A program made the translations under genes and the position numbers. Below the pieces are notes generated by a model that was given only the letters and a program-made list of their open reading frames with translations, did no database searches and was not told the origin of the DNA. A stretch of 63,081 bases of DNA, the filler included, from Collodictyon triciliatum (lineage: Eukaryota): NCBI GenBank assembly GCA_043381765.1. It is 10 parts of 10 records of this genome, joined end to end, with 100 filler letters (N's around TTAATTAATTAA, not from the genome) between each part and the next. Parts side by side here need not be neighbours in the genome. Positions count along the whole stretch, not along the records: positions 1 to 6,219 come from JBHJMP010004630.1; 9 more parts are not named here. One strand, 5' to 3'. Each line of letters opens with the position of its first letter. Positions within the stretch are counted from its first letter, which is position 1. Shown in pieces: positions 1 to 62,558 of this stretch.

Positions 1-1080
1 CTTCTTTTTTACACTTGCAGCGTCTCGCTTCAGCAAATCAACCTTTGGCGTAAAGTCTTTGTCTGTGTCTTTGTCCACAGGCTGCAGGTCCCTGCGCAGA
101 AATTTCTTCCCCTTCAATATATTCATGTCCCCTTCATTCAGCGCCTTTAGTTTATATGTGGGTGCTTTAAATCCGTCCTTCGAGACTTCGCGGCTTATAA
201 TTTTAAACAACGCAACAGTGAATTTCGGTATCCAGTTTTTATTGGTCTTGAATTTATTGCGCTCTTGCGTTGTCAAATTTGTTTTCTTCAGGTTCACACG
301 CACTAGTTGCCCGACCTCTAGTAAGTCGTCCTTGACTGAAGTGGCGGCTCGGTCTAATTTTTTCTGGTTAGCTTCTATTAACTTTGTCAGATTTTCTTTG
401 GTGGCCGCGTTGTTGGGTATCACCCCGGTGTCACGGTTCGGCTGATCGTTGATGCTGTCTGCAGTTTTTTCTAGCACTTCTTTCGTTAAGGTTTCCCCTG
501 TCTTTTGGTGGTACTTGTACAAACTATTCTTTACCACAGAATTCATGCGCTCCACGTAGGCCTGGCTCGTTGGGTTGTACGGACTCGACTTGACTTGCTT
601 GAGGCCGTGTTCTTGCAACCACGCTTTCTCGTACTTGAACTCTGTGCCGTTGTCGCTCTGGATCACCTTCAGCGCAGGATAATCCTTCTTGAACTCGAGC
701 ACGGCCTTCTTGCTTTCGGCCAGAGTCTTGTCGGTCAGCGGGTACAGAAACACCTTGCGTGTTAAAAGCACCACACAGGTCATTAGATAATTGTATTTCA
801 CTCCAACATGGTCTTCTGGGTACAGTCCCTTGGTATATATCAAATCTATCTGTGCGTACGACGGATCAGTGACATTGAAGGAAGTCACGTCCTTGCTTTT
901 GTACGCAGGTTTGCTGATTTGCTGATAGGGATTCTTTTTCATCCAACCCTCAATGTAGCTGCGAGGTATCTCCTTGTTGAAGTGGCGATACATCGCTTCA
1001 ACACTATTTACTTGCCCTGGGTCATTAAACCTTTTCTGTAGCTTCTCGTTGTATTGGTCACTAGTACTTGGGTTACTCAT
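1..1080 (-). CDS. Retroviral-type (rve, DDE) integrase of Polinton/Maverick type, 3'-truncated by the window edge
   Basis: Absent from the ORF track because no stop lies in the window. Hand translation from ATG 1080: MSNPSTSDQYNEKLQKRFNDPGQVNS...YAQIDLIY...IQSDNGTEF...QAYVERMN...LEVGQLVRV...FLRRDLQPV. D-D-E triad present; colinear with 60257-61618. Confidence 0.92.
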   Translation of the reverse strand, partial: MSNPSTSDQYNEKLQKRFNDPGQVNSVEAMYRHFNKEIPRSYIEGWMKKNPYQQISKPAYKSKDVTSFNVTDPSYAQIDLIYTKGLYPEDHVGVKYNYLMTCVVLLTRKVFLYPLTDKTLAESKKAVLEFKKDYPALKVIQSDNGTEFKYEKAWLQEHGLKQVKSSPYNPTSQAYVERMNSVVKNSLYKYHQKTGETLTKEVLEKTADSINDQPNRDTGVIPNNAATKENLTKLIEANQKKLDRAATSVKDDLLEVGQLVRVNLKKTNLTTQERNKFKTNKNWIPKFTVALFKIISREVSKDGFKAPTYKLKALNEGDMNILKGKKFLRRDLQPVDKDTDKDFTPKVDLLKRDAASVKKK

Positions 1081-1170: not shown

Positions 1171-1623
1171 ATGGCACGCACGTTAACTAGACAAGAACAG
1201 CACGCCGACGACACTACAACCCGCACGTTGACCGGAGAAGAGCTAGCAAGACTCAACTACCTGTGTTTCATTGAATGGGGAGAAAACCTAGACGGCGTGC
1301 GACAGATGGTTACAATTGCAAGGCGCTTACGCAAAAGCACTCATAAAAACTACATGAAGAGAAAAGAGAAAAAGAAAGCGTCTTCTTCACAGTTTGTGTT
1401 TGTCGACCCCGACGGAGTCCAGCATAAAATGACGCCCCTGGTTGATTACCCGGTGACCCCCGTTGTCGATTACTCAAGCGCCTCTGCATCGTCAATCAAA
1501 ACTAGTTCATCTGAGGGTTCCCCCCGTGAAGCCGCTGAACGTGTTCGCAAATACCTGGTTACACCTGACCCTGCACCCTTCTATCCGCCTTCCCCTCCCC
1601 ATTTCTGCCCTACAGACGAATAA
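1171..1623 (+). CDS. Conserved hypothetical viral protein (homolog of 59875-60189)
   Basis: TGEELARLNYLCFIEWGENLDGVRQMV...YMKRKEKKK aligns with TVEELSLFNSFCLREFFMPLDSVRTMV...YKRRTLKKK, at the same syntenic position. Confidence 0.75.
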   Translation: MARTLTRQEQHADDTTTRTLTGEELARLNYLCFIEWGENLDGVRQMVTIARRLRKSTHKNYMKRKEKKKASSSQFVFVDPDGVQHKMTPLVDYPVTPVVDYSSASASSIKTSSSEGSPREAAERVRKYLVTPDPAPFYPPSPPHFCPTDE

Positions 1624-1661: not shown

Positions 1662-3983
1662 TCAACACTGGTCACAGTCATCAAGAAGATGTTTCTTCTT
1701 TAAATGTTCTTTGACATGTTTGTCGTCAAACACGTACTTTCTGCTTTGATTTTTTTTAATTCCTATCCTTTTCAACTCTTGTCCAAAATATTGGATTGTC
1801 CATATATCTTTACGTCCTGCTCTATTCATGACATCTCTGAACAGATCATAAACTTGTGTGGGTGTATGAGGCGTAACATATAAGGCAGCAAATCTATCAT
1901 CTGGGCCAACAAGCACATAATCTTCATATGTCATTAGTAAGAACTGGTCTATTTGTGTAATTTGTAATTGTATCTGTTGTTTCCAAAGTTCTTTTTCCTT
2001 TTGTTTACCCACGACATAACTTTCGCTGTTCCAAGTATTATCATACTTTGTAAACAAATATCTACAGAATGTCAATACGTGATCTTTATCATTAATAGCA
2101 TTCTTTAAAAACTGTTGGTTTTCCTCAGGCATCTTTTCTTCTTTACATTGCACAACCATGTATCTTCGATTGCTATCAGACATATTAAAAACTGATACGT
2201 TGTTTGTATTACAACATATGTGGACATAGTTGTTGGTCGTGTACTTGCCAAGACCTTTCTTGTGAATAACTATGTCGTTAGCGACTAAAGCATCTTTCAT
2301 AACATCAGTAAACTGAACAGCATCTTTGCGTTGCCCCTCCTCTAGCAACACAAATACTTTGTTTTCTATTAGATCGTTAAATTCACCGAATAACTCGGCC
2401 ATCTTGCTCGACTTTACCCCACACAATTTACCAATGATTTTATCTATAAACAAGTCCTGAGTAATAAATGATTTGCCGATACCCTCTGTTTCGCTATAGA
2501 AAACAAGACAAGTATGAAAACGACCCATCTCATGAGGTGCAAACAATAAATGAGCAAACCATTGTATAACATAAGCATAAACGTCAGAATCATTGTTACA
2601 CAATTGATTGTACAGATGGTCTGTAATCCAACTCTTATTGTAAAATTCGCTAGTCTCTTCATCTGTAAGTCTTACCTTTATGTCTCCATGCTTTTGTATT
2701 TCATAACCTCTGAACATATTGTATGTTTGAGGATACACAGATTGATCTAAATCTATGGGTAAATCTGGGCGCATTACTAGTTTACTGACTATTCGTTTAG
2801 CATCATCTCTTTTCAAATCATCAATAAAGTCAACAATACAACCTTTTCCGATCTTGTAATAGTAATGTCCGTATTGTATTTTGGCTTCGCTTTGTGTATA
2901 TGTGTGTAAAGTACCATCATCGTTGATTCTAATGAATTTACCATTCATGATAAAATGGTCTTTTTCGTATATTTCCTTGATATAGCTGTAAGCATAACGT
3001 CCTTCTTTTATCCCAACATGTTCACGTAATTCGGTAAATGTGGCACTATCAAGGTATTCTAGAAATAAGCCAAACAGTGAACCTACTCCTAACTCGCTCT
3101 TGACTTTGTTTTGTTGAACATTTTCAATCACACTTTTCAGCTGATTAATTCTATCTTCAATAGTCGATTTGGAATTATCTGGCATTTGCTCGCAAATTCT
3201 CAACCATAACTTTGACAAATCACGTAAACCATTATTAACAATTATGTAACATACCTTTATCCATGTGTCATAGTCGTCTGGTATATATTTGAATAAGTCC
3301 CGGTCTAAAGCCATTCGGACTAAACATTCGCATGTCGCTCTTTCTTGGAATTTAGGAAAACTACTTCGATTCACAACTAGTTCTTCTATTTCTGAATCGA
3401 CTGTGTCAGATGTTTGTGGTTCTTTTCTTTTCTTTGACTTGTACTTTGCTATCAGAGGCGTAATGTCAAATTCCTGTACATCGTTGTATATCAACTTGTT
3501 TTGGCGTTCCCATATATTTTTTGTTTTGAATATCACATCAATGTCTGGGTATCCTTCGTCTAAAACTTTTGTGCCCTCCCATTGCGGATTCCAGTTAGCT
3601 GGCTTCTTTATGTACATGTGAATCCCTTTTGTATTACCTGGTGTCCAACACATATCATCTGTGAAACTAGCTATTCCCAATTTTTCTCCGAGTTGGCTAG
3701 GAGTGTGTATGTTTTTGTCATCACAGTCAATACAAACAACATCCCAGTATTTCAAAAAGACTGAGTAACATCGTTGAACGGTTTTGCTTTCTTCTAATTT
3801 CATTTTGCGTTTCAACCTGGCAATCCAATTACCTGATACCCTGCTTTTTTCTTTCCATTCAGGTAAATCAACTAACGCACAGTTGTTTTTTTCTCTGACA
3901 GTTTCTTTTTGCCCATCAATCAGAACATAATGCGCATACGCATATGGCACTTGTTTTGTAGCTAAAAACTCTCCTATGTCCAT
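1662..3983 (-). CDS. AEP primase-polymerase + PriCT-2-like domain + D5-like SF3 helicase fusion (773 aa)
   Basis: AEP motifs VVCIDCDD (hhhDhD), GNTKGIHMYI (GhH) and DIDV. PriCT-2-like DYDTWIKVCYII. Helicase Walker A SETEGIGKS, Walker B VFVLLEE, motif C CNTNN, Arg finger SNRRYMV. Confidence 0.88.
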   Translation of the reverse strand: MDIGEFLATKQVPYAYAHYVLIDGQKETVREKNNCALVDLPEWKEKSRVSGNWIARLKRKMKLEESKTVQRCYSVFLKYWDVVCIDCDDKNIHTPSQLGEKLGIASFTDDMCWTPGNTKGIHMYIKKPANWNPQWEGTKVLDEGYPDIDVIFKTKNIWERQNKLIYNDVQEFDITPLIAKYKSKKRKEPQTSDTVDSEIEELVVNRSSFPKFQERATCECLVRMALDRDLFKYIPDDYDTWIKVCYIIVNNGLRDLSKLWLRICEQMPDNSKSTIEDRINQLKSVIENVQQNKVKSELGVGSLFGLFLEYLDSATFTELREHVGIKEGRYAYSYIKEIYEKDHFIMNGKFIRINDDGTLHTYTQSEAKIQYGHYYYKIGKGCIVDFIDDLKRDDAKRIVSKLVMRPDLPIDLDQSVYPQTYNMFRGYEIQKHGDIKVRLTDEETSEFYNKSWITDHLYNQLCNNDSDVYAYVIQWFAHLLFAPHEMGRFHTCLVFYSETEGIGKSFITQDLFIDKIIGKLCGVKSSKMAELFGEFNDLIENKVFVLLEEGQRKDAVQFTDVMKDALVANDIVIHKKGLGKYTTNNYVHICCNTNNVSVFNMSDSNRRYMVVQCKEEKMPEENQQFLKNAINDKDHVLTFCRYLFTKYDNTWNSESYVVGKQKEKELWKQQIQLQITQIDQFLLMTYEDYVLVGPDDRFAALYVTPHTPTQVYDLFRDVMNRAGRKDIWTIQYFGQELKRIGIKKNQSRKYVFDDKHVKEHLKKKHLLDDCDQC

Positions 3984-4165
3984 TCTTTTGTATAGACTTA
4001 ATTAATGTATATTGAACGCATTTCTTTAAACCAACAATTCTGAACGGTTGTGTAAGACTTTCTAGATTGTATGATGTTGAATAACTTTTTACCCGCCTCG
4101 CCTCAAGTCCAGTTCTTAATTCCAGAATTCGGTCCCTCCCTCCTTCTACTGAGTTATTAAAAGTA

Positions 4166-4305
4166 TTACATATCTTACATATCTTACATTTTATTCATTT
4201 AATAAATAAATAAATAAATATATACATATAAAGAAGTAAGGAATAGAGGGAGGAGAGCGAAAAAACGTTTTGCTAGATATTTTAAAAACCATGTAGGATA
4301 TGTAA
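4166..4305. promoter_or_regulatory. Putative replication origin of element A: inverted TTACATATC iterons around an AT-rich core
   Basis: TTACATATC-TTACATATC-TTACAT at 4166-4189, inverted copy ATGTAGGATATGTAA at 4291-4305, (AAAT)n core between. Lies upstream of the replicase gene. Function is inferred. Confidence 0.5.
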
Positions 4306-4309
4306 AACT

Positions 4310-4474
4310 TTAATCGAACAGGACCGTCACAGGCCCTTCTATAATGCCCCACATATCAGGACCTTTCTTTCTCCTACCCTTCTTTCTCAATGCCTCGAGT
4401 TTGTCAAAGTATTCTTTCAGTTCTTCAAAAGTAGCAAAGAGCATTTCACCCTCCATTGTATATAGTCGTAGCAT
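4310..4474 (-). CDS. 54-aa micro-protein conserved in both elements
   Basis: MLRLYTMEGEMLFATFEELKEYFDKLEALRKKGRRKKGPDMWGIIEGPVTVLFD*. Same length, position and terminal motifs as 57135-57299. Confidence 0.8.
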   Translation of the reverse strand: MLRLYTMEGEMLFATFEELKEYFDKLEALRKKGRRKKGPDMWGIIEGPVTVLFD

Positions 4475-4490
4475 ATCTAAGACTAGATAT

Positions 4491-5213
4491 TTAAAAAAGG
4501 ATTTCTTCCGAAAAGTTCTTGTAAGCTTTGATTCTGCGGGGTACCATCAGGTTTACATATAGAAAGCAATACGGATCTGCTGTAGCGAAATCAAAAACCT
4601 GGTCAAAGAGTTTCTGATCGAGATTGGTCATTTCATTGAGGGCTTCCCGTTCGTGTTTATTGTCGGTGTAAAAAGCAACGAGGTGGGAGGCGTTTTGTCG
4701 TACCTTGGGGTTGAATAACCTGATGGCATGCCCCACTACGATCATTGATAGTCTGAAATGACGGTGCTGTAACATTTTCTTGAGCAGGGTCTTACTAGGG
4801 CGTTCGAAAGCGGTGCCGAGGTCGTCGACCACCAGTAAGTACGCATTGTCCTTGAACTCGGGGTCACTGGTAATGTCTTTTGTGACTTGTTCAAAGATTT
4901 CCTCGTTAAAGTCCTCATACATGCGGCTTTTGTGAAATTTGACACCCTCGTAGCTTGAGTCATGAATTTCTCCTCCGGAAATGTTTGAAGAGCAGAAATA
5001 TACCTTGTCGAATATCTGGTGATACATTTCTCGCTTACCCAGCAAATTACTGATCAAGGTTGTTTTGCCGCTAGCGACTTTCGCACTTATAAGCATCCAG
5101 AAGGGTCTATCACTCTTTGCGTCCGGCAATATTTCTAGAATGACTTCCCGTTTGTTTTTCTTGGCTGTCTTTAATGGAGCAACCTCAATATTACTTACTT
5201 GCTTGCTTTCCAT
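4491..5213 (-). CDS. A32/FtsK-HerA-like virion genome-packaging ATPase
   Basis: Walker A AKVASGKT, Walker B LLVVDD, and the QHRHFRLSMIVVGH and RQNASH motifs typical of Polinton/virophage/NCLDV packaging ATPases. Confidence 0.9.
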   Translation of the reverse strand: MESKQVSNIEVAPLKTAKKNKREVILEILPDAKSDRPFWMLISAKVASGKTTLISNLLGKREMYHQIFDKVYFCSSNISGGEIHDSSYEGVKFHKSRMYEDFNEEIFEQVTKDITSDPEFKDNAYLLVVDDLGTAFERPSKTLLKKMLQHRHFRLSMIVVGHAIRLFNPKVRQNASHLVAFYTDNKHEREALNEMTNLDQKLFDQVFDFATADPYCFLYVNLMVPRRIKAYKNFSEEILF

Positions 5214-6219: not shown

Positions 6220-6319
6220 NNNNNNNNNNNNNNNNNNNNNNNNNNNNNNNNNNNNNNNNNNNNTTAATTAATTAANNNNNNNNNNNNNNNNNNNNNNNNN
6301 NNNNNNNNNNNNNNNNNNN
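6220..6319. other. Artificial contig spacer (44N-TTAATTAATTAA-44N); also at 12533, 18853, 25203, 31517, 37831, 44145, 50472 and 56778
   Basis: Identical 100-nt block with stops in all six frames, separating contigs of near-equal length (about 6.2 kb). Confidence 0.98.
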
Positions 6320-7235: not shown

Positions 7236-9834
7236 AATAAATGTATGTGTCACGTTTAGTAATAATATATGCAGTGATACAAATACAGCTGCTCAACTAT
7301 AATAAACTCACATAATTTATCACTTAAAATTCACAAGAAAAATTCATAAAAATTGAAGCTCTCTAATGTATAATATGGCTATAACCATATAACATTAGTC
7401 AAAAATATCAGCATAAATCAAATTATAGTACATATTTTAAGGCTTACAATCTTACATTTATTTCAAACTGTAGTGCCGAACCCACCCGAGTCATATTCAA
7501 TTCTAAAAAAAAAGTGTATAACAAAACCGCCTTCGTATCTGTCTTAGTATTTAATATTCTTTTGAGTTCTAATTAATGCATTTTAATAAATTCAAACACT
7601 GCATGGTCAAATATATTATTGCTTTTTTTATTTTAAGTTTACTTTGACAAGTTTTAACGAAAATGTGTTTAAAATACGACATAACATATTTCTTAATGGT
7701 CAAATAACTGCATAAAAGCTCAAATGTTTACGTTGCTACATGTAAACTTTCAGCAATCTCATTAATAAATTGAGTGAAAGCTGCAACGCCCCTGTCAAAT
7801 ACGTTTATACCCAAGCGGCAACATAGACTTTGAGAGATATCATATTTTTAAAATCTTTATCAATATCTTAAATATTTGTTCGCCTCATATGTTTGTGTAA
7901 TAAAAAAGTAAATCTCCTGTATCAAAAAAAACTAAAATATATTTTTTTCTTGTAAATATGATAACAAGTAAGTGTAGTTAGATACGTTATAATGAATTTA
8001 AAAAGGATTACCGGTGCAGGATATCATTTTATAAAATTGGATTATACGTCAAAGTATAAAATATTATTCGATATCATTTTGCGTCTCACAAAGTAAAAAT
8101 TACTTCATCACTCAACAATGAACCACGATGGTCTCTCGTAAATTGTATCTTTGGGTATAGTATACCGCTTCTGCCCACAGATATGTGAATTTCTTCTGTA
8201 TTACTGATGTCCTATTCCTATATTCTATTCAAGGAATTCTGATTTACCATAACTCCTTATGTACGCGCACATCGCAAGACCCTAGTACAGTTTACTTCCG
8301 AACATGAAAAAAATCCTTTATTAATTAATCATTCAGACTGACATGTACATAATAAACAGAGAAGGCATCAAGCCAGCAGTTCTGACATATCAAATAAAAT
8401 ACCCAGCAATAAATAACGTAGGAATCAACACCCACTACTTGTAGTCTCTTTAACATTTACCCATCCGTCGCACCAAACACCAAGAAGCTACAGCAAACAG
8501 CACAGGCCAAATCCAAACTTGAAGCTTCACACACTAATGACAGTCCGTGCAAGCAGGAGCACATGTTCCTTAAACCACAAACGCATATTCATACTCCGGG
8601 TTGAGCAAAGTCCACTGCTGGTTGTGCATGATTTCAATACCAAATAAACGGTCAAGCTTCAATCCCATCAATTCTTAATAACCCTGAATAGCTTAGTTTT
8701 TTGGCTCAGACACCCAGAAAGAAATGCAAGAGAAGGGACCCAGTGTTCCATTAAAAAATACGCCGTAAAGTTAAATATTATTTACAAATTATCTCAGATA
8801 CAGCGACATAAACTCGACAGGACCGATTTTGGAAGAAACAGCCAAGTGCGAACTTTCATCAGTGATGCAACCTTGTGCGCTCTTCATTCAGTCTCAAACA
8901 TGAACAGAAACCTAGCTAAAGCTCTTCTATTTCCAATAAAATAGTCTACGTGTAATAAAACTTAATCTCAACTATGCCTCTAATCAATACTCTTTGATAT
9001 TATGTTTCTGCTGTCTTTCTTTCCGGTCAATCAAATTAATACAACTATCGCGCCGAAACTATAAAAATCCTATCAATTACATCCAATCCGATAATCAGAC
9101 ATCGATTTCACTTCCCCGTCTGCAGCTTATTTATGTCCTATTATTAATACAAGTTTTACTATTCTAGTTTTCTGTCTAAAAACCATTTCAACATTCCAAT
9201 ACATCATTTATTAACTTATATATTGTACCACTTGTACTTTGCAAATTTTTTTTATTATTTACAATCTGTATCTAAAGACCAATTAAATAGCTATAGTCTA
9301 TACATGTTATTTTGCATAATATGTGTCCATTCACATTTATTTGCATTTATTTGCATAATTCTGAGAGTTTCTCATCATTTCTACTCTATCCACATCAATC
9401 TGCATATATTACCTTTAATCCACATCAATCAGCACGCCAATTGCCATATAATTGCACTCTATCCCATTGTTCCCATCTGCCTTCCACACCATGCACCCGA
9501 GTCTCTTGCTTTACCACCTTTGCTTCTTCACCTACTTCGATATGCTGCGCTTCTTCGCTAGTCATCCTCTCTGCCGCCTAAGTACCGTCTTGCGTCCCTT
9601 GTGTCCCTCCCGCGCCGCACCATCTGCTTCCATTTTCGGTAGTGACCGTTTGCCCTGTAATAACACCCCAACTACCTATACACACAGCACCCTTCTTTCC
9701 CGCTTACCCACCGCCACAAAAAAAAAAAAGAATCTGTCCAAACTACCTACCTTGCTCAGGTACCATACCTTTGGCTCCATCTAATACCACATAAGGCCCA
9801 TCTATGCCATATCCGGCCTTTCCACAGCACGTGC

Positions 9835-11805: not shown

Positions 11806-11876
11806 TGCGCTCGCCGGGAATCGAACCCGGGTCGACCGCGTGGCAGGCGATCATCATACCACTAGACCACGAGCGC
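11806..11876 (-). tRNA. tRNA-Gly(GCC)
   Basis: GCGCTCG TGGTCTAGTGG...ATCGC-CTGCCAC-GCGGT...GGTTCGATTCC...CGAGCGCA: 71-nt cloverleaf with A and B boxes and a downstream TTTTT terminator. Confidence 0.96.
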
Positions 11877-12691
11877 TTCTTCTTGTCTCTACGGGATGAG
11901 ACAATGTATATCAATACATCAACATTGAATTCTTAGCACTTTTCATTTTTTTCTTTTTTTCTTCTCTAAATAAATGATTTCTAAATATGTTATTCCCTAT
12001 ACTCTGCGCTGGGGCAAATGGTGAGTTCTAGTGGAAAATAACCATCAGCCTAAATAATCGAATGGATATTTATTTAAGCATCAGCTCTAATCCAAATGAC
12101 TTTTCAAACGCAGCTTGCGTCCCAAAGTTAAATCTGCCAATGGTCATGAAAGTAGTAATATGCGGATTACCGATAGGGTGTTATATCACAATACTTCATT
12201 ACCAACTTGTTTTCTATTCTTAAAGTTTGAGAGATTCACAGTCATTCTTTCATCTCATAGCAAAACTAAAAGAAAACGGAATCGACGAAATGAGAGCATG
12301 TTATGTGTTTTCAGTCCGCCCACAACAATCATCGCCTGTTGGCCGCTGGAGCCAATACCAGTGGTCCGAGTTTTGTATGTAAGTATATTCTCATTGTGAC
12401 AAGCCCATCATTCGGGTTTAGCACAGCACAAGATTACACTCTTCCACAACAAAGTATACACTATATCCACGGACCATACGACCGGACAAAAAGCTGAAAG
12501 AAATCATGCAAGCCTTGTATACACATGCCGATNNNNNNNNNNNNNNNNNNNNNNNNNNNNNNNNNNNNNNNNNNNNTTAATTAATTAANNNNNNNNNNNN
12601 NNNNNNNNNNNNNNNNNNNNNNNNNNNNNNNNTTTTTTTTTTTTTTTTTTTTCTTTTTTTGTTCTTATATTGAGCACATTGAAACACCTAG

Positions 12692-15600
12692 GTATTTAAA
12701 ATCGTGGCCCCGAAGAGAGAAGCCTTAAAGGAGGCAGAGGAAAAATTCCGCGTTACTATGGAGACTGTGGAAGCGAAAAAAAAGTTGCTGGAGGACGCAG
12801 AGACAAGAATTCAACAGCTAGTCGAAAAATACGATAATGCAATAACAAAGAAAAATGATCTCCAGTCCCAAGTTCAATCCGTTGAGAAAAAACTGGATCG
12901 TGCGCAGAGACTTATCAAAGGACTCGGGGGAGAAAAAGACAGATGGATGAAAGCCAGAGATCATCTTGCTACAACATATGAGCTGCTGGTTGGGGATGTG
13001 TTGGTATCTTCTGCTGTCATCGCATACTTGGGACCTTTTACCGCTACATATCGAAACTCAATAGTAGAGAACTGGGTCAAACTTGTTCGCAGCAAAAGAA
13101 TTCCATGCAATGAACACTTTAACTTTACAAACACGATAGGAGATTCTGTTCAGATTCGGCAGTGGAAACTGGACGGCCTTCCACCCGACCGCTTCTCGGT
13201 GGAAAACGGTATCATGGTTATGAAGACGGGAGGCAGGTGGCCTTTCATGATTGATCCTCAGGGACAAGCCTGCAAGTGGATTAAAAAGATGGAATCAGGG
13301 AGTCGCATAGATGTCATCCGACCAGCAGACAGTGATATTATGCGCCGACTGGAAAATGCAGTGCAGTTCGGTAATCCTGTATTGATTGAAAATCTGGGTG
13401 AAACAATCGACCCGCAACTCTACCCCATCATTATAAAGGCAACATTTCGACAGGGCGGCCAGCTGATGATAAACATCGGAGGAAGTGCCGTAATGTTTTC
13501 CCCATCCTTCCGTCTCTACCTGACTACGAAGCTTCCAAATCCCCATTACAAACCGGAAATTTGCTCCCGTGTCACACTGGTGAACTTTATGGTGACCCCG
13601 GAGGGGGTCCAGGACCAATTGCTGGGTATTGTTGTGGCCAAGGAGAGACATGAGCTGGAAGAAGAAAAAAACAGTCTTGTCGTCCAGAACGCAAAGTTTC
13701 AGAGTGAGTTGAAGAGAATAGAAGACCAAATATTGCGACTGCTTTCAGATGCAGAGAGCAACTTTCTGGAAGATGAAGTCTTGATTGAGACTTTGAACGC
13801 TTCCAAAATTACATCACAAGAGATTGCAGAGAAAATAGCATTGTCAGCTGAAACGGAAGCTAAGATTGATACGGCGCGTTTGAGCTACCAACCAGTGGCC
13901 ATTCGAGCGTCTCTTTTATACTTTTGTGTGGCTGATATGGCAAACTTGGAGCCCATGTACCAGTATTCTCTATCTTGGTTTGTAAACATATTTGTCAAGT
14001 CTATTTCTGCAGCTGAAGGATCTCAACACTTGCAGCAGAGATTGAAAAACTTGAGCAGTCACTTTATGTACTCGCTTTATCGCAATATCTGTCAATCGCT
14101 ATTCGAGAAAGATAAGCTGCTTTTTTCATTTTTAATGTCCACACGCATTGAACGAGAGCAAGGGCATATCAGTGGCGTTGAGTGGAGATACTTTCTAACT
14201 GGTGGCTCTTCTCTGGGTTCATCAAGTCAGCTGCGTCCGGCATCACTCTCCTGGCTCCCAGAAAACATCTGGCAAGAAATTGTGAACATTTCACACCTTC
14301 CAGCTTTCTCTGAGATAACCTATCAGCTGGCGTCGCAAGCAACAGTTTGGAAGTATTTCTATGAAAAGGCCGATCCACTGGTGACGCCGCTGCCCGAACC
14401 TTACAAGGATAAGCTGTCGTCGTTCCAGAGGCTATGTCTCTTGCGTGCTATGCGGCCGGACAAGGTGGTTCCTGCGTGCCAATCCTTTATTTCTGCAACC
14501 TTGGACGCCAAGTTCATCGAGCCTCCACCTTTTGACCTTCTGAAATCTTACAAAGATTGCGACAACAAGACACCCATTATATTCATTCTGTCGCCGGGAA
14601 TGGATCCGATGGAGGAGTTTATGAACTTGGCGTTGAAGCTTGGGTTCAGAGATAAAACAAGCACCATTTCTCTCGGACAAGGGCAAGGACCCATCGCTGA
14701 TCGAATGGTGCACGAGGGCTCGGACAAAGGCCGTTGGATTCTCTTACAGAACTGCCATTTGGCTACAAGCTGGATGCCAACATTGGAGCATATCACANNN
14801 NNNNNNNNNNNNNNNNNNNNNNNNNNNNNNNNNNNNNNNNNNNNNNNNNNNNNNNNNNNNNNNNNNNNNNNNNNNNNNNNNNNNNNNNNNNNNNNNNNNN
14901 NNNNNNNNNNNNNNNNNNNNNNNNNNNNNNNNNNNNNNNNNNNNNNNNNNNNNNNNNNNNNNNNNNNNNNNNNNNNNNNNNNNNNNNNNNNNNNNNNNNN
15001 NNNNNNNNNNNNNNNNNNNNNNNNNNNNNNNNNNNNNNNNNNNNNNNNNNNNNNNNNNNNNNNNNNNNNNNNNNNNNNNNNNNNNNNNNNNNNNNNNNNN
15101 NNNNNNNNNNNNNNNNNNNNNNNNNNNNNNNNNNNNNNNNNNNNNNNNNNNNNNNNNNNNNNNNNNNNNNNNNNNNNNNNNNNNNNNNNNNNNNNNNNNN
15201 NNNNNNNNNNNNNNNNNNNNNNNNNNNNNNNNNNNNNNNNNNNNNNNNNNNNNNNNNNNNNNNNNNNNNNNNNNNNNNNNNNNNNNNNNNNNNNNNNNNN
15301 NNNNNNNNNNNNNNNNNNNNNNNNNNNNNNNNNNNNNNNNNNNNNNNNNNNNNNNNNNNNNNNNNNNNNNNNNNNNNNNNNNNNNNNNNNNNNNNNNNNN
15401 NNNNNNNNNNNNNNNNNNNNNNNNNNNNNNNNNNNNNNNNNNNNNNNNNNNNNNNNNNNNNNNNNNNNNNNNNNNNNNNNNNNNNNNNNNNNNNNNNNNN
15501 NNNNNNNNNNNNNNNNNNNNNNNNNNNNNNNNNNNNNNNNNNNNNNNNNNNNNNNNNNNNNNNNNNNNNNNNNNNNNNNNNNNNNNNNNNNNNNNNNNNN

Positions 15601-18852: not shown

Positions 18853-18972
18853 NNNNNNNNNNNNNNNNNNNNNNNNNNNNNNNNNNNNNNNNNNNNTTAA
18901 TTAATTAANNNNNNNNNNNNNNNNNNNNNNNNNNNNNNNNNNNNNNNNNNNNGCCTTTGTATCTTGGTATGT

Positions 18973-25000: not shown

Positions 25001-25302
25001 TTTCCGCTCTCGACAACACCCAGGATTCTTGCTAATTTCTTCTTCCTCCATTTTTTTCCAGCGTGCAGCAACTTGCTTGAATAGGTGTTGGCCGTATGAT
25101 GCCGATGCTGATTTTGGAATACAACGCTACTTTCTCGCACATGCTATTCTTATGGCAAAGTGCTCAGTCGATTTTCTGGGTGTTGCTGTTGGAAATTCGC
25201 CANNNNNNNNNNNNNNNNNNNNNNNNNNNNNNNNNNNNNNNNNNNNTTAATTAATTAANNNNNNNNNNNNNNNNNNNNNNNNNNNNNNNNNNNNNNNNNN
25301 NN

Positions 25303-31516: not shown

Positions 31517-31616
31517 NNNNNNNNNNNNNNNNNNNNNNNNNNNNNNNNNNNNNNNNNNNNTTAATTAATTAANNNNNNNNNNNNNNNNNNNNNNNNNNNN
31601 NNNNNNNNNNNNNNNN

Positions 31617-50471: not shown

Positions 50472-50571
50472 NNNNNNNNNNNNNNNNNNNNNNNNNNNNN
50501 NNNNNNNNNNNNNNNTTAATTAATTAANNNNNNNNNNNNNNNNNNNNNNNNNNNNNNNNNNNNNNNNNNNN

Positions 50572-56600: not shown

Positions 56601-56878
56601 ATATATTATTCGCATTTTATCAATAGGAAGATGTCCGAGCCATCACCAAGCAGACGATCTGACGCCGCCAACCAGCAAGAATCTGGAGACCAGAAACAGA
56701 CAGAACTAACCCGAGAACCCGCATCGGTCGATGAGAAAATCCGCGGAGGCTTGATTCCAGCCGCATTTTATTCTGATNNNNNNNNNNNNNNNNNNNNNNN
56801 NNNNNNNNNNNNNNNNNNNNNTTAATTAATTAANNNNNNNNNNNNNNNNNNNNNNNNNNNNNNNNNNNNNNNNNNNNG

Positions 56879-57118
56879 CACGCGATTCGTTTGTTTAATC
56901 CGAAAATCCGGCAAAATGCAAGTCACCTGGTTGCGTTTTATACAGACAACAAACACGAACGGGAATCTCTAAACGAAATAACAAACCTCGATCAGAAACT
57001 CTTTGATGAAGTCTTTGATTTTGCTACAGCAGACCCCTATTGTTTTCTCTACGTTAATTTAATGGTTCCTCGTAGAATTAAGGCCTACAAAAACTTTACG
57101 GAAGAAATCCTTTATTAA
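56879..57118 (+). CDS. Packaging ATPase, C-terminal fragment
   Basis: 73 of 79 aa identical (hand count) to the C-terminus of 4491-5213. Confidence 0.92.
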   Translation, partial: HAIRLFNPKIRQNASHLVAFYTDNKHERESLNEITNLDQKLFDEVFDFATADPYCFLYVNLMVPRRIKAYKNFTEEILY

Positions 57119-57134
57119 TATCTAGTCTTAATAT

Positions 57135-57299
57135 ATGTTACGACTATATACTCCTAATTCTGAACAACATGTATTTTTGACTTTTGAGGAGGCCCAGCAG
57201 TTTCTTGACTCGCTCTTTACAAAAAAGAACAGGGTAGACAGGAAAAGAAAATCTCTTTACTCTATTCTTCGTGGCCCTGTTACAGTTGTTTTTGATTGA
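57135..57299 (+). CDS. 54-aa micro-protein (homolog of 4310-4474)
   Basis: MLRLYTPNSEQHVFLTFEEAQQFLDSLFTKKNRVDRKRKSLYSILRGPVTVVFD*. Confidence 0.8.
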   Translation: MLRLYTPNSEQHVFLTFEEAQQFLDSLFTKKNRVDRKRKSLYSILRGPVTVVFD

Positions 57300-57477
57300 A
57301 CGGAACACCTGGACACCTGGACACCCTCTTTTCAAACTTTTTAAAATTCTGGACCCTCGGCCTTTTTTAAAAAAAAAGGGGTAGGGTCGGTATGAATTAT
57401 TATTTTTAGGAGGTGTCCCAGTAAGGGTGTCCCTAGGGTGTTCTTAAAAAAATGAGACTGAAAAGAGTAAGGAAAAA
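57288..57477. repeat. ~190-bp direct repeat, copy 1 (putative origin with GGACACC iterons)
   Basis: Near-identical to 62251-62441; internally palindromic. Confidence 0.9.
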
Positions 57478-57569
57478 TTAATCAAGGAACACCCTATCCC
57501 ACCTCAAGAGATACCCTAAAATGCCCACTTAAAAACATTTGTCTATGAGTAAGTAAGAACAAAAGAAAA

Positions 57570-59849
57570 ATGGAACTCATTGAATCAATCGACCCCGTTA
57601 TCATTGACAAACTTCTGCAACAATCAGCAGAAAAAGTAGACAAAAAGACAAAGGGAAAGCTAAGTGTAATTAAACAGCGATTAGTTAATGGACAACTGAA
57701 AGTGAAATATGATTACTCAAAGCACTGCAGAAAAATTAAAGTTGGAAGATTCTATCCAGCGAGTATTTCTGTGGGAATGTTGGAAAAGCCCCTGCGTAAT
57801 TATCTGATGAAGGATAAATATGCTAGTCTTGATATTGTTAATTGCCATTATGCTCTGTCTTTAGAACTGGCAAAAAAATGGGACACACCTTATGAAGCTA
57901 TTGAGAAGTATGTCAAGAACCGTGACAGTATAATTGAAAGGACAATGGAGTTAACACAAAAGACTCGCAAAGAAGTTAAGAAGCTGTATCTGATGCTGGC
58001 TTTTAGCGGCAAAGTCCAGCCAATTGACCAGTTTGCTACTCAACTGCAATCAGAAATGAACATGCTCGCAGCTATGGCATATAGCAAATATCCAGAATGG
58101 CACAAACTCAAACTTCGCGAGTCAGACGAATGTCTAGCTGATCACGACAATCGCATTTATAGTTTGTTGGCATATGTGCTTCAAACAGAAGAAACTAAAA
58201 TCATGCAGGTAGTGATTGATGCCTTGGTGAATAAAGGTGAAGTCGAAGTTGGATTTTATAATTTTGATGGGCTGTTTGTTGATAAAGTTGGATACGAATC
58301 CGGCGCAGGAATAGAAGAAACAAATGGTGCAATGAGTCAATATGTTGAAGAACAAACAGGGTATAAAGTAGAATTTAGCTATGAACCTATTGAATCAACG
58401 TTTAAGCCTGATGAAGTTGCTACAACAGTTTCAATTGCAGAATTTGCAAAGACTCATTTTATGTTACGCGGTGACTTGTTTGTTGAGTACCCGGATGAAC
58501 CCACTCGCAAACCCGAACATATTAAGTCTGCTGGATCTTATTGTCAAGAATTTGGAGACAAGTACTGGCAAAAAGTTCAGAGAGTTTTGCCAAAAGAAAG
58601 ACGATTCATGTACTTTGATTTTTTGCCGTATGACGGATTTACAAACAAGTATAACCCAAAGGCCTATAACAATTTTAAGGGCTTTAAATTTGAAGAGTAC
58701 TTTCCTGAATTCAATGGATTGCAGTTGAAAGATTGGATTGGGTACTGCAATCGCATAGCTTCTTCTGTTACTGTTGATGATTATAGTGTCTGGAAAAATA
58801 GCATGACATATAAACAATTGTCAAAGTATCTTTGTGCTAGTAATGCTGTCTCAGAGAAATATGTCATACAATACTTGGCTAGAATATTGTATCATCCGAG
58901 TTATCGCATTGGCAAAATGATGATATTTAGAAACAACAGAGGAGGGACAGGCAAGACTGCTTTCTTTCACAAACTGTTTGTCCAGCAAATCATTGGAAAG
59001 CAATACGGCAGTACACACTCAAGTCTGTCTGAAATATTTGGAGACAAGAATATGAATATTCAGAACAAGTTACTTTGCATTCTGGAAGAAAGTGATGTTT
59101 CAAAAACTAAGACATTACAAGGAGACATTAAAGAAGCTGTCGATCGTGACGAAAATCACATTCGTATGCTTTACCACAATCCTTATCCTGTAAAGAATAC
59201 AGTCAATTACATTCTTAACACCAACAAAGAAATCGGGATTGTTTTTGAGCGAGACAATATGAGACGCTTCCCTGTGTTTGATGTGTTGGAGCATCGCCTG
59301 AGTCCCGGGGAAATCAAACAACTGACCCAGGAGTGTTATGACTCTGACTTTGTTAAAATTTTTACTAAGGTGTTAATGAACGAGTATGATCCTAATTTCA
59401 ACTTTAATGACTTTCCAAAAAGTGAGACTTGTGAAGTACTGGCAGAAACTAGCATGCATCCCGTGGAACAGTTTATTAAGTTCTTGTTTGTTGAATGGAA
59501 TGAATACATCTGGGACACGTATGAGCTGACGTTCAAATCACAGTATCAATGGCATAAAGAAAAGGACGCATCACCATTTAGTCACAGTGCCGATGAGATT
59601 TATGACATATACAAAATGTTCAGCGCCAAGAGACTCCCGAATCACAAAGTGTTGGAGTTTAAATCGTTTACCAACAATGCACACTGGACAACATTTAAAT
59701 CTACCTATGGGGTTACGTCAAAGAAAGGTAAGTATGAATGCGACTATAAACAAGTCCGTAAATTGTTGACAGAGAATAGCAATTTGAAAAATCACTTCAA
59801 TTCTGAAGGAATCGTGAGCAGCGCCAAGAGAGCCCGCACAAAAGAATAA
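57570..59849 (+). CDS. TVpol (PolA-related transposon-viral polymerase/primase) fused to a D5-like SF3 helicase (759 aa)
   Basis: GRFYP...LRNYL, motif A SLDIVNCH, motif B RKEVKKLYLMLAFSG, LQTEE, motif C FDGLFV. Helicase GGTGKT, LCILEE, LNTNK, NMRRFPV. Same architecture as Sputnik virophage V13. Confidence 0.85.
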   Translation: MELIESIDPVIIDKLLQQSAEKVDKKTKGKLSVIKQRLVNGQLKVKYDYSKHCRKIKVGRFYPASISVGMLEKPLRNYLMKDKYASLDIVNCHYALSLELAKKWDTPYEAIEKYVKNRDSIIERTMELTQKTRKEVKKLYLMLAFSGKVQPIDQFATQLQSEMNMLAAMAYSKYPEWHKLKLRESDECLADHDNRIYSLLAYVLQTEETKIMQVVIDALVNKGEVEVGFYNFDGLFVDKVGYESGAGIEETNGAMSQYVEEQTGYKVEFSYEPIESTFKPDEVATTVSIAEFAKTHFMLRGDLFVEYPDEPTRKPEHIKSAGSYCQEFGDKYWQKVQRVLPKERRFMYFDFLPYDGFTNKYNPKAYNNFKGFKFEEYFPEFNGLQLKDWIGYCNRIASSVTVDDYSVWKNSMTYKQLSKYLCASNAVSEKYVIQYLARILYHPSYRIGKMMIFRNNRGGTGKTAFFHKLFVQQIIGKQYGSTHSSLSEIFGDKNMNIQNKLLCILEESDVSKTKTLQGDIKEAVDRDENHIRMLYHNPYPVKNTVNYILNTNKEIGIVFERDNMRRFPVFDVLEHRLSPGEIKQLTQECYDSDFVKIFTKVLMNEYDPNFNFNDFPKSETCEVLAETSMHPVEQFIKFLFVEWNEYIWDTYELTFKSQYQWHKEKDASPFSHSADEIYDIYKMFSAKRLPNHKVLEFKSFTNNAHWTTFKSTYGVTSKKGKYECDYKQVRKLLTENSNLKNHFNSEGIVSSAKRARTKE

Positions 59850-59874: not shown

Positions 59875-60189
59875 TTATTTTGAGTTTGTTGATATAGATT
59901 CACTAGAAGACATTCCAGTTGAATAAACTTTAGGAAAGCGATCTTCAAATTCTACATAGTCTGGAATATGGATGTCAATCACAGGGGGTGTTATAGGTCT
60001 TTCAATATTAGCTATGGCGTTCTTCTTTTTCAATGTGCGGCGTTTGTAACCTCGGGAATTTCTAGCTTTTGTTCTGAGCCCACATGACACCATTGTGCGC
60101 ACACTATCCAATGGCATAAAAAATTCTCGGAGACAAAACGAATTGAACAGGCTAAGTTCCTCTACAGTAAAATGGAAATCCATTATCAT
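59875..60189 (-). CDS. Conserved hypothetical viral protein (homolog of 1171-1623)
   Basis: Shared EEL..N..C..E...LD.VR.MV...Y..R..KKK pattern and synteny. Confidence 0.75.
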   Translation of the reverse strand: MIMDFHFTVEELSLFNSFCLREFFMPLDSVRTMVSCGLRTKARNSRGYKRRTLKKKNAIANIERPITPPVIDIHIPDYVEFEDRFPKVYSTGMSSSESISTNSK

Positions 60190-60256: not shown

Positions 60257-61618
60257 ATGAGCACTAGTGATAATTATAATGAAAAATTACAGAAACGTTA
60301 TAATGAACCTGGACAAGTGAATTCAATTGATGCATTGTATAGACATTTCAATAAGGAGATACCTCGAAGTTATATAGTTAGATGGATGAAGAAAAACCCG
60401 TATCAACAAATAAGCAAGCCAGCTTTTAAAAGTAAAGATGTTAATCCGTTTAATGTAACAGATCCTAGTTATGCACAGATCGATTTGATTTATACCAAAG
60501 GGTTGTATCCAGATAACTATGAGGGTAGTATGTTTAAGTATTTGATGGTGTGTGTTGTTTTGTTAACACGCAAAGTATTTATGTATCCATTGACTGAAAA
60601 GACTTTGGCAGAATCCAAGAAGGCCGTACTTAATTTTAAAAAAGACTATCCACCTTTGAAGGTTATCCAAAGTGATAACGGAACAGAGTTTAAGTTTGAC
60701 AAACAATTTCTTAAGGAAAACGGATTAAAGTCAGTAAAGAGTTCTGCATATAATCCAACAAGTCAGGCATATGTTGAGCGAATGAATAGTGTTGTAAAAA
60801 ATTCACTATACAAGTTACATCAAAAGACTGGTAAAGATGTATTGACAAAAGAAGTCTTAGAAAAAACAGCTGATAGTATAAATGACCAGCCTAATAGAAG
60901 CACTGGTGTAATTCCTAACAATGCTACTACAAAAGAAAACTTGGAAAAGTTAATAGAAGCAAATCAGAATAAACTAGAAAAAGCTAGCAAGAGTGAAAGA
61001 GACAATGTGTTAGAAGTTGGCACAAAAGTTAGAGTCAGTTTAACTAAAACCAATCTAACAACACAAGAAAGAAATAAGTTTAAGACACAAAAGAATTGGA
61101 TACCTAAATTTACTACAGAGCTTTTTATCATACACAAAGTAAATATTCATAAGGAGGGATTTAAAGCACCAACTTATGAATTGAAGGGAATGAAAGAAGA
61201 AGACCAGAAAATATTAAAGGGCAAACGCTTTTTACGCAGAGACCTACAACCCGTGGATAAAGACACAAAAGAATTCAAGCCTGTAGTTGATTTAATTAAA
61301 CGAGACACAGAGTCTAAACCAAGAGGTAGACCTAGATTAATCGAAGAGAAAGTAAAAGCACGCAAGGCTTGGAATATGCTGTGGATGAACGCAAAGAATT
61401 TTACAAACAGAACAGGGAAGTTTGATGTTGGAAAAAAAGAACGACAAGAAGAATTAATAAAGGCACAACCCAAAATTAAAAAGTTGTTTGATGCTTTTAT
61501 TCAGACTTATACGGATAGTCCTCCATTGACTACTCTGCAGAAAAAGAACTTTGAAAAGTTAAAGCGTGTGATAGCAGAGCCAATAGAAAAAAGACGGAAA
61601 CAAAGTGTAAAGAATTAA
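60257..61618 (+). CDS. rve (DDE) integrase of Polinton type with a C-terminal AT-hook-like motif
   Basis: QIDL, QSDNGTEF and YVERMN catalytic triad; LEVGTKVRV...FLRRDLQPV C-terminal domain; KPRGRPR. Confidence 0.93.
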   Translation: MSTSDNYNEKLQKRYNEPGQVNSIDALYRHFNKEIPRSYIVRWMKKNPYQQISKPAFKSKDVNPFNVTDPSYAQIDLIYTKGLYPDNYEGSMFKYLMVCVVLLTRKVFMYPLTEKTLAESKKAVLNFKKDYPPLKVIQSDNGTEFKFDKQFLKENGLKSVKSSAYNPTSQAYVERMNSVVKNSLYKLHQKTGKDVLTKEVLEKTADSINDQPNRSTGVIPNNATTKENLEKLIEANQNKLEKASKSERDNVLEVGTKVRVSLTKTNLTTQERNKFKTQKNWIPKFTTELFIIHKVNIHKEGFKAPTYELKGMKEEDQKILKGKRFLRRDLQPVDKDTKEFKPVVDLIKRDTESKPRGRPRLIEEKVKARKAWNMLWMNAKNFTNRTGKFDVGKKERQEELIKAQPKIKKLFDAFIQTYTDSPPLTTLQKKNFEKLKRVIAEPIEKRRKQSVKN

Positions 61619-62187
61619 CTCTGTTTTTTTGGCAGAACAAAGCGTGGTTTTTTTTTCAACTCTTTTTGTATTTCTTTGGTAAGCTTACCCAAAGCATCAG
61701 GGTCTTGCTCCAATTCTTTGGCTTCTTCTTTTTCTTTCTTTTTCATTGAGGACTCTGCCTCTGCGACTATCTTGCGTTTCTCTGCGCGCTTGGGTTCATT
61801 CTCTTTTACTTTGGCTAAACCCTTTTTCTTTTTCTCAAGGTTAGCTTCTTTTGATTGTCTGTATATATCACCGATGTCTTTGGTGTTATTTGTCCAAGTC
61901 TTTCCGTAGTTTGTCATTCCTAGGACTTTACCTTCCTGGTCTTTCCATAAAGCATTACCCACTTCATTCTGAACCATTGAAACAAATCCTTGGTTGATTT
62001 TAGCAGGGTACTCTTTGCCATTGTACGATCGTGCTTTCATTTCATACATAATGTAGTCTCCTTTTTCCAAGTCTTCATATTTGACTTTGGAAAAATCTTT
62101 ATTGTCTGTTGGCAGAGTTGAAGTCTTTTTGCCTTTGGCTTTGTCTTCTTCGGTAGGCGCGGACTTAGAAAATTTTCGGGGCGGCAT
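61615..62187 (-). CDS. Lysine-rich protein with a central beta-rich domain
   Basis: 190-aa ORF whose stop overlaps the integrase stop in a shared TTAA; YEDLEKGDYIMY is SH3/KOW-like. Confidence 0.7.
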   Translation of the reverse strand: MPPRKFSKSAPTEEDKAKGKKTSTLPTDNKDFSKVKYEDLEKGDYIMYEMKARSYNGKEYPAKINQGFVSMVQNEVGNALWKDQEGKVLGMTNYGKTWTNNTKDIGDIYRQSKEANLEKKKKGLAKVKENEPKRAEKRKIVAEAESSMKKKEKEEAKELEQDPDALGKLTKEIQKELKKKPRFVLPKKQS

Positions 62188-62250: not shown

Positions 62251-62441
62251 GTTTTTGATTGAACGGAACACCTGGACACCCGGACACCCTCTTTTCAAAC
62301 TTTTTAAAATTCTGGACCCTCGGCCTTTTTTAAAAAAAAAGGGGTAGGGTCGGTATGAATAATTATTTTTTAGGAGGTGTTCTAGTAAGGGTGTCCCTAG
62401 GGTGTTCTTAAAAAAATGAGACTGAGAGGAGTAAGGAAAAA
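62251..62441. repeat. ~190-bp direct repeat, copy 2 (subterminal)
   Basis: Near-identical to 57288-57477. Confidence 0.9.
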
Positions 62442-62468: not shown

Positions 62469-62558
62469 GGACGGCTAAGTCTTGGACGGCTAACCCTAAC
62501 CCTAACCCTAGGACGGCTAACCCTAACCCTAACCCTAGGACGGCTAACCCTAACCCTA
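62469..62558. repeat. GGACGG-punctuated telomere-like (CCCTAA) repeat array
   Basis: GGACGGCTAA(CCCTAA)2CCCTA twice (27 bp each), plus one 21-bp unit and one partial unit. Confidence 0.9.

Follow-up and report, generated by a model that had tools for sequence, protein, structure and literature searches.

Candidate replication origins that appear to travel with their replicases in two virus-like elements from the Collodictyon triciliatum assembly

Does a short noncoding block that precedes a replicase gene belong to that gene, as an origin belongs to its initiator, or to the rest of the element that carries it? The question is raised by two virus-like elements, here called A and B, found in a window of 63,081 nucleotides (nt; the whole stretch analyzed, filler included) taken from the draft genome of Collodictyon triciliatum (GenBank assembly GCA_043381765.1). 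In each of them a block of short repeated words stands just ahead of the replicase gene, and a prior reading based on the window by itself (the sequence-only reading) proposed that the blocks are cognate origins, exchanged together with their replicases as single units. The comparisons described below support such an exchange, and they make it probable that each block is an origin read by the replicase next to it.

The window is made up of about ten contigs of approximately 6.2 kb each, sorted by size and joined by N44-TTAATTAATTAA-N44 linkers. Elements A and B are therefore not chromosomal neighbors, adjacency across a linker is biologically meaningless, and "co-resident", as applied to the two, means only that they lie on separate contigs of the same draft assembly. 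Element A is on the first contig (1-6219), with its genes on the minus strand, and element B is on the last (56878-63081), with its genes on the plus strand. They have the same gene order: an A32-type ATPase, an open reading frame (ORF) of 54 amino acids (aa), the noncoding block, a replicase of about 760 aa, a small antisense ORF and an rve integrase, beyond which element B extends with a 190-aa ORF. This gene content, together with relatives found on metagenome contigs of 16-17 kb, marks A and B as putative elements of the polinton-like virus/virophage type. Both encode a packaging ATPase of the A32/FtsK type (Pfam Pox_A32, E 1.3e-8, in A; the C-terminal part in B), and both combine an integrase, recognized as rve by sub-threshold Pfam matches, with a replicase in which a superfamily 3 (SF3) helicase is joined either to an archaeo-eukaryotic primase (AEP) or to a domain resembling family A DNA polymerases (PolA). 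Any capsid genes would lie beyond both contigs, which stop before that region; a distant relative, locus L003, encodes a Sputnik V18/19 minor capsid protein.

The blocks and replicases are as follows:

3984..4309, no strand assigned: block A, candidate origin (words, A/T core, shuffles, fold, and a word in common with locus L015)
1662..3983, minus strand: replicase A, 773 aa, predicted AEP primase-polymerase plus D5-like SF3 helicase (Pfam, PDB profile, Foldseek)
57300..57569, no strand assigned: block B copy 1, candidate origin (word scan and fold)
57570..59849, plus strand: replicase B, 759 aa, predicted family-A-polymerase-like domain (TVpol type) plus SF3 helicase plus C-terminal winged helix (Pfam, model)
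62251..62441, no strand assigned: block B copy 2, a direct repeat of 57288-57477 (96.3% over 191 nt)

In element A the stop codon of the small ORF is at 4310-4312, and the first word begins 4 nt past it. An inverted pair, ATGTAGGAT ATGTAA, occupies 4291-4306, and three tandem units of 9 nt, GTATTACAT, ATCTTACAT and ATCTTACAT, occupy 4163-4189 (in the phase chosen by the sequence-only reading, TTACATATC twice and TTACATTTT once, at 4166-4192). Between the tandem units and the inverted pair is a core of pure A/T (4190-4235). This is the arrangement of three repeats one way and two inverted around an AT-rich core that had been described at the outset. In addition, CCTCCCTC at 4135-4142 pairs with GAGGGAGG at 4246-4253. 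The exact 7-mer TACATAT is present in four copies, counting both strands, a number reached by none of 200 dinucleotide shuffles of 3984-4309, and the segment 4160-4309, folded as single-stranded DNA, gives -12.5 kcal/mol (z -2.99; 2 of 200 shuffles as good). No second copy of block A was found within the window, where A's contig ends inside the integrase.

Block B is built on the same plan. The small-ORF stop is at 57297-57299, the first word is at 57302, and the direct words at 57302-57326 are GGAACACC, TGGACACC and TGGACACC. They are followed by a hairpin at 57352-57388 (-10.8 kcal/mol, z -3.76) and by three inverted words at 57412-57443, all of which recovers the layout first proposed. A seventh word, absent from that proposal, is at 57487-57493. 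The noncoding block thus starts 2-4 nt past the small-ORF stop in both elements and precedes the replicase, inside the limit of about 5 nt given earlier, and the claim of a common architecture with unrelated sequences held as well, in that self-BLAST gave no match between the blocks of A and B. The array of B is strong. The word GRACACC occurs 25 times in the window, where 8.07 matches would be expected, and 13 of the 25 fall within 57303-57493 and 62266-62407; the segment 57298-57446 folds as DNA at -28.5 kcal/mol (z -3.84), a value reached by 0 of 200 shuffles.

The second of these two intervals belongs to another copy of block B, overlooked by the sequence-only reading, which lies 4.96 kb downstream of the first, in direct orientation, behind the 190-aa ORF. 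It holds six GRACACC words, and the sole change inside a word is at the degenerate R position. It also carries the last four codons (12 nt) of the small ORF and so arose by DNA duplication. The two copies bracket the replicase, the small antisense ORF, the integrase and the 190-aa ORF.

The replicases that follow the two blocks are of two classes, as judged from their predicted structures: AEP primase plus SF3 helicase in A, and PolA-like domain plus SF3 helicase plus winged helix in B. Replicase A contains Pfam DUF5906 at residues 495-607 and has a PDB profile match to the helicase region of NrS-1 (E 8.9e-9). Its model matches, by Foldseek, the C-terminal region of NrS-1 (6.5e-7), African swine fever virus (ASFV) PrimPol, pRN1 prim-pol, and monkeypox virus (MPXV) E5/poxvirus E5/D5, and these matches are the grounds for considering it a probable AEP primase-polymerase with a D5-like SF3 helicase. 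Replicase B contains DUF5906 at 457-566 and a VapE-like match. Residues 1-280 of its model resemble family A DNA polymerases (VIA Z 12.3 with Aquifex Pol I, root-mean-square deviation (rmsd) 4.0, 250 residues aligned; Foldseek match to Klenow, 3.1e-4), and residues 628-735 form a winged helix that resembles those of ORC/Cdc6 (Z 5.2-5.9) and the P4 origin-binding domain 1ka8 (Z 5.1, rmsd 3.3, 71 residues aligned). The helicase core of this model is poor, and a PDB sequence-profile search with the B family gave nothing meaningful. With a family A polymerase fold at its N-terminus and an SF3 helicase behind it, the model conforms to the TVpol type, a name given to PolA-like-SF3 fusions (bioRxiv 10.64898/2026.10.13.758929). 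The replicases of A and B are alike in the helicase half only (24% over 336 residues, E 2e-22). The full set of priming domain, SF3 helicase and C-terminal winged helix appears in the model of B, and AEP and SF3 domains appear in A by Foldseek. Variability within the two replicase families does not single out the binding domain: the C-terminal domain varies more than the helicase in each (0.54 vs 0.79; 0.41 vs 0.53), but the N-terminal domain varies about as much.

There are also 21 closer replicase homologs (P0003-P0023). P0003 is 92% identical to 57570-59849 overall, 80% in the polymerase-like domain (1-280) and 97-100% elsewhere, a pattern that appears to be a sign of domain-level mosaicism inside the replicase.

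To which part of the element does the block belong? Related DNA came from a metagenome scan with an alignment of the ATPases (18 loci) and from a scan of IMG/VR with an alignment of the A family of replicases (12 distant loci); scans of IMG/VR with single replicases, with the B-family alignment or with the ATPase alignment gave no relative, the A-family alignment alone finding matches. Among the 18 metagenome loci, the combination of small ORF and block is present only in L013, L015 and L016. L013 has very nearly the backbone of A (aa identities of 96% for the ATPase, 97% for a 109-aa ORF, 92% for a 253-aa ORF and 80% for the small ORF). Its replicase is of the B type (57% to B), and its block has a third word, CTGCTCAACCC, in three copies, with an inverted GGGGTTGAGCAG and an inner hairpin. 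At the nucleotide level A and L013 are 90% identical over the ATPase gene and 81% over the small ORF, then 32% over the 120 nt past its stop; similarity therefore breaks at that stop codon. L015, whose integrase and ATPase are only 34% and 60% identical to those of A, has an A-type replicase (46% to A) and a block in which ATCCTGTAT/ATCCTGCAA/ATCCTACAT run direct, then inverted, then direct again. The 9-mer ATCCTACAT is common to the blocks of A and L015. Finally, A and B have integrases that are 78% identical, unrelated words, and replicases of different classes.

From these three comparisons, drawn from few independent pairs, word type appears to go with replicase type and not with integrase or ATPase. 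The claim that block and replicase were exchanged as one unit thus gains support, at the level of sequence comparison: A and L013 have the same backbone and differ both in word and in replicase class, a public sequencing run (X5, below) breaks at 57297, and the two parts would travel and be exchanged as a single cassette with a breakpoint at the small-ORF stop.

About 65 nt past the small-ORF stop, A (approximately 4230-4246, minus strand) and L013 (approximately 2122-2140) both hold TATTCC(C)TTACTTCTTT, which is common to the two despite their unrelated repeat words. Perhaps it serves the block as a scaffold element that a backbone or host factor reads.

The public sequencing runs were examined as Logan contigs, and no claims are made from depth. 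One contig of run X5 matches B over 56878-57297 (10 differences) and is unlike B from the small-ORF stop onward, where it has tandem GACCAAG/GGATCAAG words. The next contig agrees with B over 59858-62256, a stretch of 2.4 kb with 18 differences; the agreement ends 9 nt behind the replicase stop at one side and, at the other, where block copy 2 begins. In a third the core of the block survives (62291-62372, 4 differences), but the words to either side of it are GGATCAAGTC and the inverse word rather than those of B. Both block positions, then, carry another word on a backbone that is approximately 99% identical (the variant's replicase is not among the contigs). The lack of an X5 contig at 90% or more over 57298-59857, and of an X8 contig over much of the replicase, says nothing as to whether the replicase differs or is absent. 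Run X1 presents the case of a retained word: a contig that is 96% identical over 57385-62112, replicase included, keeps B's inverted words, with two of the three changes listed in 57412-57443 in word flanks and the third (57417) on the degenerate R position, and a second X1 contig spans B's direct words with no listed change. In run X6 there is a joint of 62460 to 57519, which could be a circle or tandem junction or else a variant copy 1.

How general is the arrangement? All 17 loci that encode a replicase resembling that of A or B (A, B, L001-L013, L015 and L016) were compared under a rule fixed before counting: for each locus, the strongest array of an exact 7-mer with at least four copies, on both strands, in 200 nt. 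In 8 of the 17 the whole of the top array falls in the 700 nt ahead of the replicase ATG, and two more (B and L015) have ties. Expectation from lengths alone is 1.15 (Poisson-binomial P = 4e-6). These are the loci (8 by the strict rule and 2 with ties) where opposed sets of words flank an A/T-rich or easily melted center beside the gene of the presumed initiator. The distant AEP-SF3 group (L001-L003 and L007-L009) has words phased at 9 nt, two to three direct and two to three inverted, about 85-95 nt apart around an A/T run. The word is ATGGTAGAT in L001 and L002, ATGGTCGAT in all seven copies, direct and inverted, upstream of the L003 replicase, and AATGGTTG in both L007 and L008; replicase identities are 74-77% among L001-L003 and 51% for L007/L008 (a figure of 48% is also given). 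Invariant columns in a four-way alignment of upstream regions are concentrated in the words. All copies of the word, as far as sequence comparison goes, thus appear to change in concert between lineages, which is what an altered specificity of a binding protein predicts. Second direct copies kilobases away are found in L003 (8545 nt) and L008 (approximately 9.8 kb), as in B, and IMG/VR classes two records of the distant group as complete with direct terminal repeats.

The whole word block of L009 is tandemly duplicated upstream of the replicase (9185-9631): a set of four ATGTATG words occurs twice, at a distance of 239 nt, and there are inverted copies as well.

What, then, do the blocks do? 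On balance I favor, as probable, the reading that each is a replication origin read by the adjoining replicase, on the grounds of the architecture, of the C-terminal winged helix in the replicase of B, and of analogy with SaPI (staphylococcal pathogenicity island) Rep/ori and P4 alpha. The DNA-binding domain of the replicase (in B, the winged helix behind the helicase) would recognize the short words; the two opposed sets of words would place two helicase rings head to head, flanking the A/T-rich or hairpin core; and the core would melt, whereupon the priming domain at the enzyme's own N-terminus (AEP in A, PolA-like in B) would start synthesis. Copy 2 of block B would act as another origin, or else like an enhancer in the manner of P4 crr. 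The different words may also give the elements separate replication specificities, as the sequence-only reading supposed.

The mechanism itself is of the familiar iteron-plus-initiator kind. SV40 large T antigen and papillomavirus E1 are SF3 initiators that assemble as two hexamers on palindromic short words next to A/T-rich DNA, in an origin that overlaps a promoter. In these two proteins, however, the domain that binds the origin precedes the helicase and has another fold, and a priming domain is missing. In P4, ori and crr have words the size of octamers and make up two word-bearing sites kilobases apart, comparable to what is seen in B, L003 and L008. P4 is unlike the elements here in having a DnaG-type primase, and the match to B is middling and a matter of fold class only.

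P4 alpha and ORF904 of pRN1 both unite a primase, an SF3 helicase and a winged helix (PMC2777425), and the match of B to 1ka8 noted above places its replicase beside P4 alpha, which has the same three kinds of domain, the winged helix again being C-terminal. The likeness to SaPIs, and more widely to phage-inducible chromosomal islands (PICIs), extends to the DNA, as far as the part of the source drawn on here describes them (PMC9371898). There the Rep, or a fused PriRep, is a self-loading initiator-helicase that uses a C-terminal winged helix to recognize iterons flanking an AT-rich center next to rep; the origin has 6-12 short iterons beside the gene, with at least two per side in opposite directions; and the words are lineage-specific, with cognate binding in SaPI, where only the words are seen here. 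SaPIs and PICIs are bacterial, however, and their origin is downstream of rep rather than upstream, whereas the present elements are hosted by eukaryotes and carry capsid-packaging and rve-integrase genes; the likeness is at the level of the general SF3/D5-like helicase class only. Three things set the blocks apart from the origins of SaPI Rep and P4 alpha: they lie upstream of the gene, they belong to viral elements of eukaryotes, and there are two dispersed copies.

A further comparison is with the polinton-like viruses and virophages for which an "end module" and a turnover of replicons have been hypothesized (PMC11296320; bioRxiv 10.64898/2026.10.13.758929). As described there, a primase-helicase stands beside an integrase and repeats are proposed as its origin, repeats bracket the replication module, replication modules re-assort with morphogenetic modules, and the replicases fall into PolA-SF3 and AEP-SF3 classes. 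Turnover of replication modules, the replicase classes, the bracketing repeats, and repeats beside the primase-helicase as an origin are thus already in print as hypotheses. The text drawn on here describes inverted or terminal repeats and bracketing repeats, not phased opposed words upstream of the replicase nor concerted switching (figures and supplements may hold repeat annotations), and the integrase of the end module is a tyrosine recombinase, unlike the rve type here. A literature search for a mapped replication origin of a polinton-like virus or virophage gave the end-module hypothesis and unrelated papers only, and it found no account of phased word arrays upstream of these replicases. 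By analogy with the known systems, origin function is likely. The blocks would be short candidate origins, readable from sequence, that come as natural variants of specificity on near-identical backbones, and it is this that makes the published idea of replicon turnover directly testable. The word arrays may also help to annotate and type replication modules in protist genomes and metagenomes.

Several observations weigh against an origin that is specific to its replicase. The array of A, taken alone, is modest: the 9-mer in five copies, with one mismatch allowed, was reached by 10 of 200 dinucleotide shuffles. The Z values of about 5-6 for the winged helix are middling, and such values can reflect a common arrangement. 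The upstream rule fails in 7 of the 17 loci. The arrays of L005 (2394-2587) and L006 (3083-3277), two near-identical loci, are directly behind the replicase stop, a SaPI-like position; that of L008 is cut by the start of the contig; that of L010 is 760-890 nt upstream; those of L012 and L016 are elsewhere; and L013 has fewer than four exact copies. Moreover, the null distribution takes account of lengths only, although noncoding DNA is more prone to repeats. In L016 a palindromic block stays behind the small ORF with the replicase 3.3 kb away. The co-variation of iteron type with replicase type, the check proposed with the sequence-only reading, holds for A/L015, L001-L003, L007/L008, A vs L013 and A vs B, and it fails for B vs L013, whose replicases are 57% identical and whose words are unlike (GRACACC with a period of 8, CTGCTCAACCC with a period of 11). 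Linked noncoding DNA would in any case co-vary with the adjoining gene by descent alone, and what argues for selection is only that all copies change in concert and that the core is conserved. Finally, the second copies in B, L003 and L008 are all upstream of gene starts, so that a promoter or operator role may coexist with that of an origin.

That last role might also be the only one. The words would then be operator or promoter sites through which the replicase, or some other factor of the cassette such as the small antisense ORF, controls the replicase gene and (at copy 2) the 190-aa ORF, while replication starts elsewhere, for example at the ends of the element. I consider this unlikely. 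In its favor, the blocks are 80-320 nt upstream of the replicase ATG, copy 2 of block B is 64 nt upstream of the divergent 190-aa ORF, the second array of L003 lies between two divergent genes and that of L008 upstream of a minus-strand gene, and the small antisense ORF differs strongly between A and B (27%) and hence is also in the variable cassette. Origin and promoter overlap in known SF3 initiators such as that of SV40, so these positions are compatible with an origin too, while the arrays of L005 and L006, downstream of the replicase stop, and the resemblance of opposed words around an A/T core or hairpin to origins of the SaPI type (PMC9371898) speak against control as the sole function. 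It is improbable that the blocks descend from terminal repeats and serve, instead of as origins, as ends or sites of recombination for a mobile replicase-integrase module, acted on by the integrase or by homologous recombination. The bracketing of the module by the copies in B is consistent with this idea, as are the duplication of the last 12 nt of the small ORF, forms in run X1 that skip 62257-62615 or have the block joined to 62566 on the opposite strand, and, in published elements, repeats that bracket replication modules, including a direct repeat in the terminal repeat of Gezel-14T and behind its end module (PMC11296320; bioRxiv 10.64898/2026.10.13.758929). The copies in B are direct, however, not inverted, the integrases of A and B are 78% identical yet the blocks are unrelated, A and L015 have the same word with integrases that are 34% identical, and the published hypothesis gives bracketing repeats the role of an origin as well.

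A packaging signal, read by the A32-type ATPase encoded just upstream, would account for the fact that the block follows the ATPase gene and small ORF in all five elements that have the small ORF (A, B, L013, L015 and L016). With blocks that are unrelated in A and L013, whose ATPases are 96% identical, this is very improbable; the pattern of covariation disfavors both the packaging signal and the integrase substrate. Least credible of all is that the repeats are the product of chance or neutral slippage in A/T-rich noncoding DNA. The array of A alone is only modestly above shuffles, which would fit, but chance leaves aside the 13 of 25 GRACACC matches that fall in the two blocks of B (about 8 being expected in the whole window), the arrays upstream of the replicase in 8 of 17 loci, and the words that stand out as conserved columns among diverged upstream regions.

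The origin reading can be extended, tentatively and with more doubt than confidence. The word-bearing copies might bracket a self-contained replication-integration module that moves between virus backbones as a unit, with words that switch in concert at both copies and define incompatibility groups, letting related endogenous elements persist in one host. If this is true, polinton-like viruses and virophages carry plasmid-like replicons that switch specificity and whose origins can be read from sequence.

The remaining features of the two elements and of the window are these:

1..1080, minus strand: element A rve integrase, cut by the start of the contig and window (Pfam rve, E 1.2e-6, 29.2 bits)
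1171..1623, plus strand: element A small ORF antisense to the replicase, 150 aa (27% to the 104-aa ORF of B, E 4e-7)
4310..4474, minus strand: element A conserved small ORF, 54 aa, no assigned function (homologs follow the ATPase gene)
4491..5213, minus strand: element A packaging ATPase (A32/FtsK type), 240 aa (Pfam Pox_A32, E 1.3e-8)
56891..57118, plus strand: element B packaging ATPase, C-terminal part (79% nt identity to 4458-4731; the contig starts at 56878)
57135..57299, plus strand: element B conserved small ORF, 54 aa (45% identical to that of A)
59875..60189, minus strand: element B small antisense ORF, 104 aa (27% to the 150-aa ORF of A)
60257..61618, plus strand: element B rve integrase, 453 aa (Pfam rve, E 8.1e-6, 26.5 bits)
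61615..62187, minus strand: element B 190-aa ORF, lysine-rich, no family (homologs in L015 and L016)
62484..62558, no strand assigned: 27-nt tandem, 2.8 copies, with telomere-like CCCTAA units, right behind block B copy 2
6220-6319, 12533-12632, 18853-18952, 25203-25302, 31517-31616, 37831-37930, 44145-44244, 50472-50571 and 56778-56877: linkers

Both rve matches are below the Pfam gathering cut-off of 32.6 bits. The ATPase of A has 14 homologs at 44-90% identity, and the ATPase part in B is 71-74% identical (tblastn) to those of L015 and L016. Homologs of the small ORF follow the ATPase gene in B, L013, L015 and L016. The differences between A and L013 in this ORF fall 5/8/18 by codon position; a search with the ORF of A gave no Pfam family at the cut-off (a weak DUF365 match, E 0.066) and no Atlas lead at 0.9. 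The antisense small ORF is far less conserved between A and B than the adjoining integrase. The 253-aa ORF of A has homologs beside the ATPase in L013, L015, L016 and L022, and no Pfam family. Between the ATPase stop and the start of the small ORF is a palindrome, ATATCTA..TAGATAT, in A (approximately 4476-4493) and L013 (approximately 1878-1895); it is less perfect in B (approximately 57119-57137).

The CCCTAA units behind block B copy 2 also occur inside the palindromic block behind the small ORF of L016 (6728-6771). An element end, integration into telomeric repeats, or something else are candidate roles for them. Terminal inverted repeats serving as integrase substrates were considered and set aside: the copies in B are direct, one of them is internal, and integrases that are 78% identical go with unrelated blocks (the true ends are off the contigs). 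None of the runs covers 62690-63081, which may be host DNA. Just before that interval is a near-perfect palindrome of 41 nt (62649-62689; DNA fold -16.9 kcal/mol, z -8.35), and a contig of run X6 matches only 62645-62688, with flanks that differ on both sides. The palindrome is possibly the tip of the element, or else a small site that is mobile or recurs. The other contigs of the window carry genes of host type, including a fragment of a dynein heavy chain (12704-14797) and an HMG-box protein (27922-29361), as well as a tRNA-Gly(GCC) at 11806-11876 and microsatellites.

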